64,000 nucleotides of DNA from Octopus vulgaris (Eukaryota). The stretch lies in the NCBI GenBank assembly GCA_951406725.2, contig OX597833.1:56420001-56484000 (forward strand), read 5' to 3'. Positions within the stretch are counted from its first letter, which is position 1; every line of letters starts with the position of its first letter. The translations under genes were made by a program, and so were the position numbers. Of the stretch, positions 6,083 through 44,286 are shown piece after piece. Below the pieces are notes generated by a model. The model was not told where the DNA came from and did not search any database. It saw only the letters and a list, made by a program, of their open reading frames with translations.

Positions 6083-6459
6083 CTTTACTCTTTCACTTGT
6101 TTCAGTCATTTGACTGCGGCCATGCTGGAGCACGCCTTTTTAGTCGAGCAACTCGACCCCGGGACTTATTCTTTGTAAGCCCGGTACTTATTCTATCGGT
6201 CTATTTTGCCGAACCGCTAGGTGACAGGGACATAAACACACCAGCTTCGGTTGTCAAGCAATGTTGGATGGGACAAACACAGACACACAAACATACACGC
6301 ACACACATATATATATATATATACATATACGACGGACTTCTTTCAGTTTCCGTCTACCAAATCCACTCACAAGGCTTTGGTCGGCCCGAGGCTATAGTAG
6401 AAGACACTTGCCCAAGGTGCCACGCAGTGGGATTGAACTCGGAACCATGTGGTTGGTAA
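6083..6459 (-). mobile_element. tRNA-derived SINE with internal (TA)n/(TG)n tract and CAGCATGGCCGCAGTCAAATGACTGAAAC tail, representative copy
   Basis: The family recurs at about 7410-7789(-), 15707-16240(+), 19497-20115(+), 25521-25900(+), 36675-37066(-), 46457-46989(+) and 62626-63003(+). Head GGAGTGGCTGTGTGGTAAG...GGTTCAGTCCC. Confidence 0.85.
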
Positions 6460-7051
6460 ACTTTGTAGAGGGTTTTACTTTCTCTCCTCTTTTTATTTTC
6501 ATCCTATTGTTTTTTTCAGAACAAGATTTAAGATTCCTATCCATGGCCTGTATTTTTAGAATGTACACACATCAGTCTCCAAGATATATCATACCCAGAG
6601 TAAATTTACTTCATGTAAACTCTACTATTTATAAATTTTCTCTAATGCTTGAGTCACTATAGATACATGCGGGATTGTTGGGGATCGCTTCTGAAATCCA
6701 CATATTCCCACGAAACTTCTTCCAAGGAAGAAGCCGACTCAACCCACCCAGGGTGAATGTTGCCACAAGTACAAGTAAGTAGTACTATAGACACAGGTTT
6801 TCACTTAGCCTTTTTTTTTAGTTTTAACAATGGCCTTTGCTCCTCTAAAATTGTTGACTACCATTTCCTGTTAATCTATTTAATGCACTCATCTTTCTCC
6901 TCTTTATATCTACTGTACACCATCTAGTCTTTTTAATGGCCTCTGTTTCTCTAAAAGTGCTGACTTTGTAACATCATGTGAATCTAAGAGATGAGGAATT
7001 ATGTACATTATTTACATTCGACGGATATTTGTCCTCATCTTGTTTGTTGTT

Positions 7052-7097
7052 AACACAACGTTTCGGCTGATATACCCTCCAGCCTTCATCAGGTGTC
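7052..7097 (-). ncRNA. Minimal type I hammerhead ribozyme motif
   Basis: Minus strand reads GACAC-CTGATGA-A-GGCTG-GAGGGTATAT-CAGCC-GAAAC-GTT-GTGTT. Stem I GACAC/GTGTT, stem II GGCTG/CAGCC, loopless palindromic stem III AACGTT and a GUU triplet. Confidence 0.75.
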
Positions 7098-7180
7098 TTG
7101 GGGGAAATTTTGAACCTGGGTTCTCATTCCTAAGGTATGTTTCGATACTATTATTATTATTATTATTGTTTGGGCCCATG

Positions 7181-7253
7181 GGCATATGGCATAGTGGGTT
7201 AAGAGCGCAGGCTACTAACCCCAAGATTCCGAGTTCGATTCCAAGCAGTGACC
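7181..7253 (+). promoter_or_regulatory. tRNA-derived head with Pol III A and B boxes
   Basis: A box TGGCATAGTGG (7187-7197), B box GAGTTCGATTCC (7231-7242) and an anticodon-like loop CTACTAA. No convincing acceptor stem, so not called a tRNA gene. Confidence 0.7.
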
Positions 7254-7318
7254 TAAACAATAATAATCACATCGAAAAATACCTTAGGAATGAGAACCCA
7301 GGTTCGAAATTTCCCCAA

Positions 7319-7364
7319 GACACCTGAAGACGGCTGGAGGGTATATCTGCTGAAACATTGTGTT
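7319..7364 (+). ncRNA. Degenerate minimal hammerhead motif (second copy)
   Basis: GACAC-CTGAAGA-C-GGCTG...CTGCT-GAAAC-ATT-GTGTT. CpG-type changes damage stems II and III relative to the 7052-7097 copy. Confidence 0.55.
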
Positions 7365-8507
7365 AACAACAAACAAGATGGCCTTTCTTTTTACTTTCTT
7401 TTCTTTTTTTTTTTTTTACTTGTTTCAGTCATTTGACTGCGGCCATGCTGGAGCAGCACCAAATCGACCATGGGACTTATTCTTTGTAAGCCTCGTACTT
7501 ATTCTATCGGTCTCTTTTGCTGAACCGCTAAGTGACGGGGATGTAAACACACCTGCATCAGTTGTCAAGCAATGCTAGGGGGACAAACACAGACACACAA
7601 ACACACACACATACATATACATATATACGACAGCTTCTTTCAGTTTCCATCTACCAAATCCACTCACAAGGCATTGGTCGGCCCGGGGCTATAACAGAAG
7701 ACACTTGCCCAAGATGCCACGCAGTAGGACTGAACCCGGAACCATGTGGTTGGTAAGCAAGCTACTTACCACACAGCCACTCCTGCGCCTTGTATAATTT
7801 CAGTAAACAAACTATTTGCAAGAATCAGTGAAAAGTCTGTTTACTGAAATTACAAACGAGGTCACTGGCTGTTGTCAGATTCATTAGTCCAAGTATGACT
7901 GGCTGAAAACACACAATGTCAAAACATCAGTGTTCCAGAGTCCCTTTACTATATAAAAATAACATTATCTAATATGCTGGTAGTTGAATATATGAAAATA
8001 GGGAGAATTTCTGATAGGGACACAAAATGGTTTCTGATTAAGGCACGAGGTCAGCAATTTTGAGAGGATGATGAGTTGTTAACACTATCAACCAGTGAAT
8101 TTGACTGGCATTTTATTTTATTCATTCTGAAAGGATGAAACACAAAGTTGGCCTTTGCAGAATTTGATGTGAGAATGTAAAAAGCCAGAACAAATACCTA
8201 TTTCTTTACTACCCACACGGGGCTAAACACAGAGGGGTCAAACAAGGACAGACAAACGGATTAAGTCGATTACATCGACCCCAGTGCATAACTGGTACTT
8301 ATTTAATCGACCCCGAAAGGACGAAAGGCAAAGTCGACCTCGACGGAATTTGAACTCAGAACGTAATAGCAGACAAAATACGGCTACGCATTTCGCCCGG
8401 CGTGCTAACGTTTCTGCCAGCTCGCCGCCTGAACAAATACCACAATGCTCTACCTTTTCTGCTAGTCCACCGCCTTTTCTAGGGGTTACATAATAAGACT
8501 GACTTAC

Positions 8508-21001: not shown

Positions 21002-21878
21002 CTAGAAGTTTACGAAAAAAAGATGCATTAAAAAAAAAAAAACCATTATTGATATTACAGTTTTTTGAGGAATTATGTACATTATTTACATTTGACGGAT
21101 ATTTGTCCTCATCTTGTTTGCTGTTAACACAATGTTTCAGCTGATATGCCTATTTCTTCACTGCCCACAAGGGGCTAAACACAGAGAGGACAAACAAGGA
21201 CAGACAAACAGATTAAGTCGATTATATCGACCCCAGTGCATAACTGGTACTTATTTAATCGTCCTCAAAAGGATGAAAGGCAAAGTCGACCTCGGCGGAA
21301 TTTGAACTCAGAACGTAGCGGCAGACAAAATACCGCTAAGCATTTTGCCCGGCGTGCTAACGTTTCTGCCAATTCAGCTGATATACCCTCCAGCCTTCAT
21401 CAGGTGTATTGGGGAAATTTCAAACCTGCATTTCGCCCAGTGTGCTAATGATTCTGCCAGCTTGCTGCCCTTGCAAAAGGACTACTTTACAACAAGATCA
21501 TTGTATTGTCTTCATCTCAGTACATTTTTAGTCCATATTCCTTCTTGTCTCTTTGTTAAACAGCCTCCTGCATTAATACTTTTCTCTCTGCTTTTATTGA
21601 CTGTCTTTTTTTCTTTATTGTAGGAGTGGCTGTGTGGTAAGTAGCTTGCTTACCAACCACATGGTTCCGGGTTCTGTCCCATCATCATCGTTTAACATCC
21701 ATTTTCCATGCTAGCATGTGTTGGATGGTTCAACCGGGTCTACAGGCCCATTTGAAATCGTAGAACCATGGGCAATTTCAAGTGGGTTGGTATTAAAATG
21801 GTTAATTATGACTGAATGTAATGATCATTAATTAATTTGTGAAATGTCTTTAATTGTAGAAAATTGTTCTCATCTCAC

Positions 21879-43415: not shown

Positions 43416-44286
43416 GTGGAGGCACATGGCCTAGTGGTTAGAGCAGCGGACTCGCGGTCGAGGGATTGTGGGTTCGAATCTCAGACTGGGTGATGTGTGT
43501 GTTTATGAGCAAAACACCTAAGCTCCACGCGGCTCCGGCAGAAGGTAATGGCGAACTTCTGCTGACTCTTTCACCACAACTTTCTCTCACTCTTTCCTGC
43601 ATCTTGCAGCTCACCTGTGACGGACCAGCATCCCATCCCCTCCAGGTGGAGAACCTATAAGCCAAGGAAACTGAGAAACCGGCCCTTATGAGCCAGGAAT
43701 GGCTTGAGAAGGAACAAACAAACTCGTGGTTGAGGGATCACGGGTCAAATCTCAGACTGGGCGATGTGTGTGTTTATGAGCAAAACACCTAAGCTCCACG
43801 CAGCTCCGGCAGAAGGTAATGGCCAACTTCTGCTGACTCTTTCGCCACAACTTTCTCTCACTCTTTCCTCCTGCATCTTGCAGCTCACACCTGCAATGGA
43901 CCGGCGTCCCGTCCAGGTGGGGAACCTATACTCCAAGAAACCAGGAAACCGGCTCTTATGAGCCAGGCATGGCTCGAGAAGGAACAAACAAACTCGCGAT
44001 TGAGGGATCATAGTTTCGAATCTCAGACCGGGTGATGTGTGTTTTCATGAGCGAAACACCTAAGCTCCATATTGCTCCGGCAGAAGGTAATGGCAAAACT
44101 TCTGCTGACTCTTTCACCACAACTTTCTCTCACTCTTTCCTCCTCCTGCATCTTGCAGCTCATTTGCGACGGATCAGCGTCCCGTCCAGGTGGGGAACCT
44201 ATATGCCAAGGAAACCAGGAAACCGGGAAACCGGCCCTTATGAGCCAGGCATGGCTCGATAAGGAACAAACAAACAAACAACAACG
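43416..44286 (+). mobile_element. Head-to-tail SINE trimer inside one TSD
   Basis: Units start at about 43416, 43722 and 43992. TSD TGTATTTAGCCT at 43404-43415 and 44287-44298. Confidence 0.88.

Follow-up and report, generated by a model that had tools for sequence, protein, structure and literature searches.

On balance, we read the locus at 6984..7380 of the window (the whole 64,000-nucleotide stretch of Octopus vulgaris DNA analysed here) as a head-to-head pair of pseudo-LTRs of a Penelope-type retrotransposon that encodes a reverse transcriptase (RT) and a GIY-YIG endonuclease, and whose repeat opens with a tRNA-derived A/B-box module; this module likely sets the start of the RNA, and likely does so for RNA polymerase III (Pol III). 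For the same DNA, the first-pass annotation had proposed an independent SINE, made of a tRNA-like head fused to a hammerhead body and mobilised by Penelope machinery. The head is instead internal to the terminal repeat of an autonomous element, and the body is the start of the ORF of that element.

Structure of the locus

The features of the two arms, and of a further arm of the same repeat elsewhere in the window, are the following.

6984..7171, minus strand: inverted arm, with linker, ORF start (ATG at 7127), hammerhead, the usual end at about 7001 and part of the optional tail
6984..7000, minus strand: initial part of the optional Penelope 'tail'
7052..7097, minus strand: minimal type I hammerhead, intact; predicted cut after GUU, last base 7057; predicted to require a second copy
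7174..7380, plus strand: head-bearing arm, the pseudo-LTR from its 5' edge; about 95% identity to the family majority
7174..7183, plus strand: palindrome of 10 nt that marks the repeat's 5' edge; the 5' ends of copies cluster here
7180..7254, plus strand: tRNA-derived segment, nearest to tRNA-Arg among the 6 isotypes sampled; no cloverleaf fold
7187..7197, plus strand: Pol III A box, 13 nt past the 5' edge
7233..7242, plus strand: Pol III B box
7255..7268, plus strand: short AAT/AAC linker, of highly variable length within the family
7290..7379, plus strand: start of the Penelope RT-endonuclease ORF, 30 codons from the ATG at 7290; frame open in the plus arm
7319..7364, plus strand: minimal type I hammerhead, decayed, with the core retained, stem II weakened and the dimer palindrome broken
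21066..21428, minus strand: second, decayed arm of the same repeat (21428-21373 and 21150-21066), interrupted by another SINE

The A and B boxes in a tRNA-like head, the (AAT)n linker between head and body and the opposite-pointing copy with an intact hammerhead had all been described in the first-pass annotation, and all are present. The inverted arm does have the longer 3' end ascribed to it, which includes part of the tail, but its boundary lies at about 6984 and not at 6993. Of the hammerhead that had been placed in the plus arm, the motif and the core stand, whereas stem II and the palindrome are decayed. The plus arm has lost its 3' end, stopping ~38 nt before the usual tail-less end and abutting the A-rich tail of one copy of a different, abundant tRNA-headed SINE of ~390 nt, which is found at 7381-7790 (minus strand) and also at 6088-6459. 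There is no target duplication around the unit at this locus, even with the neighbouring SINE included, in agreement with the earlier description, though the family has them (see below).

A third abundant SINE, of ~240 nt, occupies 8191-8430 and 21146-21371. Its second copy sits inside the decayed pseudo-LTR arm at 21066-21428, and this SINE was therefore active after the Penelope family. Elsewhere in the window, three tandem 271-nt units with a tRNA-like start (43450-44275, with an A/B-box pair at 43427) are a tandemly repeated SINE-like element.

The autonomous element that carries the repeat

Coding sequence lies directly upstream of the head at several loci. A search with the end of the ORF gave 30 loci, 29 of which run into the head ~30 nt past the stop codon. 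Of the copies whose anchor lies in the ORF just past the tail, all 38 (40 listed, minus the query and one locus already in the set) extend into the repeat. A full element begins with the head and the AAT linker; the ATG follows, then the hammerhead, which lies inside the ORF, and after it tail, RT, GIY-YIG, stop, 30 nt and head again. An autonomous Penelope partner with the same hammerhead terminus, for which the first-pass annotation had suggested looking, does exist. What had been taken for the body of a SINE is the first ~50 codons of the element's own ORF: the ATG after the linker (7290 and 7127 in the window) opens a frame that runs through hammerhead and tail into the RT (loci L142 and L170), and in the majority sequence this frame is open for 646 codons, up to an alignment frameshift. 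P0002, a full-length relative of 847 aa from elsewhere, aligns across the hammerhead-coded peptide (43.5%, E 7e-27). Partial tandems are present (L416, L423); no intact autonomous copy was seen.

The ORF is a single frame with an RT and, at its C terminus, a GIY-YIG domain, and has 283 homologs. Its fragments match RVT_1 (E 1.6e-9 and 2.8e-10), and the endonuclease fragment falls into the GIY-YIG clusters of the Atlas (0.96-0.97), with no Pfam match at E 0.01. The closest proteins, P0001-P0004 (ENA records, 54-61% identity), are as poor in Phe as the element protein (2.4%). An anole protein of 836 aa, P0043, is 42% identical to the element protein and is presumably the PAc protein of anole Poseidon. 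The zinc-finger linker between RT and endonuclease, which is present in other Penelope-like families, is absent from the translations as judged by eye, and this separates the family from Neptune. By these features and by pairwise identities it would belong in Penelope/Poseidon.

Two young Neptune-type Penelope-like families with open frames of 781-784 aa were also met in the genome (L381-L386 and L391, on G000 C6, C3, C2, C16 and C8), each with many near-identical copies. No tRNA head or standard hammerhead pattern was found within 600 nt past their stop codons, and the family of L391 terminates in tandem repeats with CCAAT-like and TGACGTC motifs.

Copy number and insertion signature

We surveyed the family in the 2.8-Gb genome. 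Of 76 tiles of 10 kb placed at even intervals, 16 contain pieces of the repeat, which gives ~59,000 loci (range 33,000-88,000). Head and body are linked at 39 other loci among 40 scored, as the first-pass annotation had expected; their junction is not unique to this locus. The head does lie inside an autonomous terminus, which by the annotation's own terms goes half way towards refuting it. To describe individual copies we used 91 of the first 93 listed hammerhead matches (in genome order, contigs C1-C2), a sample which is anchored on the ribozyme only and is therefore biased towards well-kept copies.

In the numbering of the repeat used here (ATG at 299), 3' ends are bimodal for 84 of the 91 copies, with 32 near position 427 and 52 at 445-463, and none of the 91 extends 3' into the ORF. 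An adjacent inverted arm is found in 39 of them. The tail is on one arm only in 56 of the 64 head-to-head pairs for which both ends were scored, out of 74 (P 6e-10), and a target duplication of at least 8 bases accompanies 19 of 39 inverted units, versus 28 of 1482 mismatched control pairs. Insertion is by Penelope machinery, as had been proposed, and bears its marks in the one-arm tail, the target duplications and the two 3' end sites. Copies are mostly solo or head-to-head, with a few direct pairs (L005, L020), and no head-to-tail tandem arrays of hammerhead units were seen.

At L024 (1250-1280 and 1750-1780), ~28 nt of flank are inverted-duplicated on either side and replace the direct target duplication, which suggests fold-back copying into the flank at that one locus. 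Five of the 38 ORF-start copies (L393, L394, L402, L409 and L413, near 850) begin exactly at repeat position 407, within a short direct repeat just before the tail-less end, where small inverted pieces start as well; these may be insertions into the element's own repeat. Finally, many copies that end in the AAT linker are fused to the AAT tails of other repeats (L184, L190, L191, L198), suggesting microhomology joining of the cDNA end.

The hammerheads

The minus-arm hammerhead (7097-7052) is the sole match to the minimal-hammerhead descriptor in the window, and 200 shuffles gave none. It has the core, stems I and II, the bulge and the palindromic helix III, and its exact 46-nt intact sequence occurs in 848 copies genome-wide (reversed control 0). 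The plus arm has a stem II mismatch at 7348, a change of C11.1 to U at 7351 and a break at 7357 in the ACGU palindrome, which is needed for the pairing of two hammerhead copies. The minus-arm motif is predicted to cleave as a dimer, the one in the plus arm is not. Of 55 complete copies of the hammerhead, 12 are fully intact. Both arms carry the same free N7 base in the core in 13 of 17 unanchored pairs, where 52% would be expected (P 0.03), indicating that the two arms mostly come from one source; the locus in the window is a discordant pair for this base.

Starts at the predicted cut are not enriched, with at most 1-2 among the 38 ORF-start copies. The minimal hammerhead of Penelope-like elements (PLEs) is described as cutting weakly, as a dimer (PMC4209133), and the one studied here is predicted to act only in pairs. 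By analogy with anole Poseidon, for which the hammerhead is reported to be dispensable (PMC11167929), it is probably not needed for insertion.

The tRNA-like head

The A-then-B box pattern occurs 4 times in the window, against a mean of 0.22 and a maximum of 3 in 100 shuffles. The family-majority head is identical to genomic tRNA-Arg at 48 of 64 and 51 of 69 positions (z ~8), the best match among 30 genomic tRNA genes from the 6 isotypes sampled. Two other SINEs at the locus were considered as the source of the head and rejected, the match to either being weaker than that to tRNA-Arg, and none of the 76 tiles holds a head joined to another kind of body. ARAGORN found no tRNA anywhere in the window, Rfam reported neither a tRNA nor a hammerhead at the locus, and a cloverleaf fold is not favoured for the head (z +0.26). 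A match to MIR2606 in Rfam (E 3e-7, far below its cut-off) was discarded, as it merely reflects the inverted repeat. Among copies, the A and B boxes are not visibly better conserved than the remaining head; such equal decay is expected for dead copies, yet it lends no support to transcription by Pol III.

The 5' edge of copies

Among the 91 copies, 14 end between linker and ribozyme, 34 end in the linker and 43 reach the head. These 43 mostly start at the head, which agrees with the first-pass reading: 34 do so at positions 165-200, 6 start further inside and 3 continue into the ORF (L245 and L250, classed as ending in the linker, probably add one to each side of this tally). Inverted arms that reach the head behave alike, with 20 of 22 starting in the same 36 nt. 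From this pile-up of 5' ends it follows that most templates ended at the edge of the head. ORF-bearing L404 and L406 also begin at this edge, against unrelated flank, and only 7 of the 38 ORF-start copies reach the head (2 at the edge, 3 inside the head, and 2 partial tandems that run past it). When only the 23 starts unconfounded by an inverted head are considered, 8 fall no later than position 173 and another 9 at 177-181, positions which hold both the tRNA +1 position and the centre of the palindrome.

In ORF-attached repeats, the edge is preceded at 28 nt by a TATA motif, within which the stop codon falls, and followed at 13 nt by the A box. This spacing around the edge is that of a tRNA gene.

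Terminators and transcripts

The template RNA likely starts at the tRNA promoter and would likely be made by Pol III. Pol III terminates at runs of four or more T (T4), and no such run occurs in the 2651 nt of the majority unit, which spans head to ORF end; P is 0.005 when single bases are shuffled, 0.055 for dinucleotides and 0.028 for synonymous codons. Decayed single copies have 0.3 T4 per kb over 16.8 kb. By comparison, 5 other Penelope-like ORF stretches whose base content is similar have 16 in 4491 nt (3.6 per kb), 4 other RT ORF stretches have 25 in 6840 nt (3.7 per kb), and two full-length Neptune-type ORFs have 6 and 9 runs, all of these in-genome controls being from other clades, with ~4.6% Phe versus 2.4% in the element protein. 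A control from the same clade with no tRNA head was sought in the genome and not found. With codons fixed the T4 deficit is modest, and one family is one observation. The absence of G4 runs was rejected as a special sign, as other Penelope-like ORFs are nearly without them too (1 in 4491 nt).

Three raw RNA-seq runs from one study contain many copies, with reads equal on both strands; they show no discrete start, and depth doubles at the head. This pattern mirrors copy number within longer transcripts and does not bear on Pol III. A search of indexed sequencing runs listed no RNA run that contains the repeat. The TATA motif at -28 suits Pol II equally, and two studied Penelope-like elements are reported to carry spliced 5' UTR introns (PMC8557442).

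Proposed mechanism

In a partial-tandem copy, the TATA motif at -28 would come from the end of one ORF, and transcription would proceed from the edge through the terminator-free ORF. The subsequent steps are modelled on anole Poseidon, whose protein is reported to prime internally on both cut strands in vitro (PMC11167929). The element protein would bind the RNA near the ORF start, cut both target strands and prime two cDNAs behind the ribozyme, one with the tail and the other without it. Priming in the 5' repeat would leave at most ~280 nt to copy and so give SINE-looking copies, while priming in the 3' repeat would give ORF copies truncated at the 5' end. The two cDNAs would unite head to head, often via the palindrome.

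One might go further and speculate that an autonomous, protein-coding retrotransposon captured a tRNA-Arg-type promoter, which became the 5' end of its repeat, and replicated by way of a 2.8-kb Pol III transcript, that its ORF has been purged of T4, and that internal priming in the 5' repeat has scattered SINE look-alikes through the genome by the tens of thousands; a Penelope element would then have led directly to a SINE. We put this full scenario forward tentatively, as one that is possible and somewhat doubtful.

Is the short unit a SINE, and what made its 5' edge?

Some properties of a SINE are found in the unit, namely a tRNA-related head with A and B boxes and a discrete 5' end at the head. 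Others are lacking: the unit is not independent of an autonomous partner, has no detectable lineage of its own and has no simple-repeat or A-rich 3' tail, the first-pass annotation having already noted that a simple-repeat tail is lacking at the locus. We consider it unlikely that the short head and hammerhead unit is nevertheless a SINE in its own right, whose solo repeats would be transcribed by Pol III from their own A and B boxes, re-copied in trans by the Penelope protein and sorted into their own lineages. Short copies do far outnumber ORF copies (16 of 76 10-kb tiles versus 404 RT candidates), the 5' edge at the head is sharp and the unit has no internal T4. However, the whole unit belongs to the autonomous element, and a comparison of 39 short with 32 ORF-attached copies gave no diagnostic site: the lowest uncorrected P over 17 variable columns is 0.025, nearly all of these columns reflect CpG decay, and divergence is shared (6.3% in short and 7.0% in ORF-attached copies). 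A separate short lineage is not detectable in a sample of this size, from which small subfamilies would escape. Moreover, solo copies have neither the upstream TATA motif nor the ORF sequence behind the tail which, if the analogy holds, the protein would require on its RNA as the anole protein is reported to do (PMC11167929).

The other alternatives concern the edge itself. The RNA could start there but be a Pol II product driven by the TATA motif at -28; the tRNA-like segment would then be a mere passenger, derived from an old tRNA or SINE head that became trapped in the 5' UTR. The motif is at a suitable distance, known Penelope starts are described as lying in the pseudo-LTR and as accompanied by spliced introns or by TATA/Inr motifs (PMC8557442, PMC3846280), and translation of the ORF would be accounted for. 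We nonetheless find this distinctly unlikely, as it leaves both the A box 13 nt from the edge and the T4-free ORF unaccounted for. It is very improbable, in our view, that the edge arises afterwards, either because a longer RNA is cut in the manner of RNase P at its tRNA-like 5' end or because the cDNA folds back at the 10-nt palindrome. The 9 of 23 unconfounded starts at the tRNA +1 position and palindrome centre would fit such an origin, as would the 8 at or before 173 and the inverted duplication of flank at L024, and palindromes at the 5' ends of pseudo-LTRs are known and have been interpreted as a sign of self-priming (PMC3846280). But the head has no tRNA fold, stops at the edge are seen also in copies with no inverted head at all, and the 56 of 64 pairs in which just one of the arms has the tail fit two primings better than fold-back. 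Our preferred reading remains that the tRNA-derived module sets the start of the RNA.

Relation to known elements

Described Penelope/Poseidon elements (anole Poseidon PAc, PMC11167929; rotifer Pen2a, Pen2 and Pen3a, PMC3846280) have in common with the present family, as far as the accessible text of these sources goes, a single ORF with RT and C-terminal GIY-YIG, an optional ~30-nt tail that one of the inverted arms carries, 3' ends at two sites, target duplications of ~8-13 bp and a palindrome at the 5' end of the repeat. In Pen2a and anole Poseidon the ORF start and the hammerhead also lie inside the pseudo-LTR, as they do here. The differences are the promoter and the abundance. The repeat of the octopus family has a tRNA-derived A/B-box module and an AAT linker where the described ones have a TATA/Inr or an intron-overlapping promoter (PMC11167929, PMC3846280), and there are tens of thousands of solo and paired repeats. 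The hammerhead does not differ in kind from the minimal type I hammerheads of metazoan PLEs as set out by Cervera and de la Pena (2014, PMC4209133): both have a core of CUGANGA and GAAA, a single bulged base ahead of stem II, a G10.1-C11.1 pair, a 6-bp stem II, a 5-bp stem I and a tiny palindromic helix III. In the window the cut triplet is GUU, and the plus-arm copy is decayed.

Schistosome Sm-alpha elements are described as tRNA-related and SINE-like, with hammerheads (PMC2770079). The unit in the window resembles tRNA-derived SINEs, Sm-alpha by its description included, in its A/B-box tRNA head, its ~280 nt, its high copy number and the hammerhead in the unit, and departs from them in lying wholly inside an autonomous element, in having no simple-repeat tail and in its Penelope insertion signatures. 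TRIMp3 elements (Helenus, Ajax and Cassandra; Kojima 2024, PMC10886601) likewise have a small-RNA-derived Pol III promoter in the terminal repeat; they are, however, non-autonomous LTR elements of less than 1.3 kb, whose autonomous partners are expected to use Pol II, whereas the repeat in the window is the protein-coding element's own. Non-LTR retrozymes (PMC7761336; bioRxiv 10.64898/2026.07.22.740005) share with the family the character of hammerhead-bearing non-coding pseudo-LTR derivatives, but are described as head-to-tail tandem arrays with circular RNAs, in contrast to its mostly solo or head-to-head copies. The word tRNA is absent from the accessible text of the retrozyme preprint (bioRxiv 10.64898/2026.07.22.740005).

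The repeats of Penelope elements, with their tails, inverted arms and minimal hammerheads, have been described before. We found no tRNA promoter described in a Penelope repeat in the literature covered, which excludes Repbase, Dfam, most subscription journals and supplements; the family may already be catalogued in Repbase or Dfam.

Implications

Autonomous retrotransposons are taken to use Pol II, or to ride on Pol I, with Pol III reserved for short non-coding passengers (PMC10886601, in its accessible text). A tRNA promoter in Penelope's own repeat would break this split between Pol II-autonomous and Pol III-passenger elements. Transcription by Pol III would in turn pose the question of how an uncapped RNA gets translated, and whether the hammerhead at the ORF start helps. 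For annotation, tens of thousands of these pseudo-LTR repeats would be called SINEs. The counts of tails, target duplications and breakpoints offer genome-scale support for two-ended priming, so far seen in vitro for one element, and SINE-like families may arise as by-products of internal priming by Penelope.
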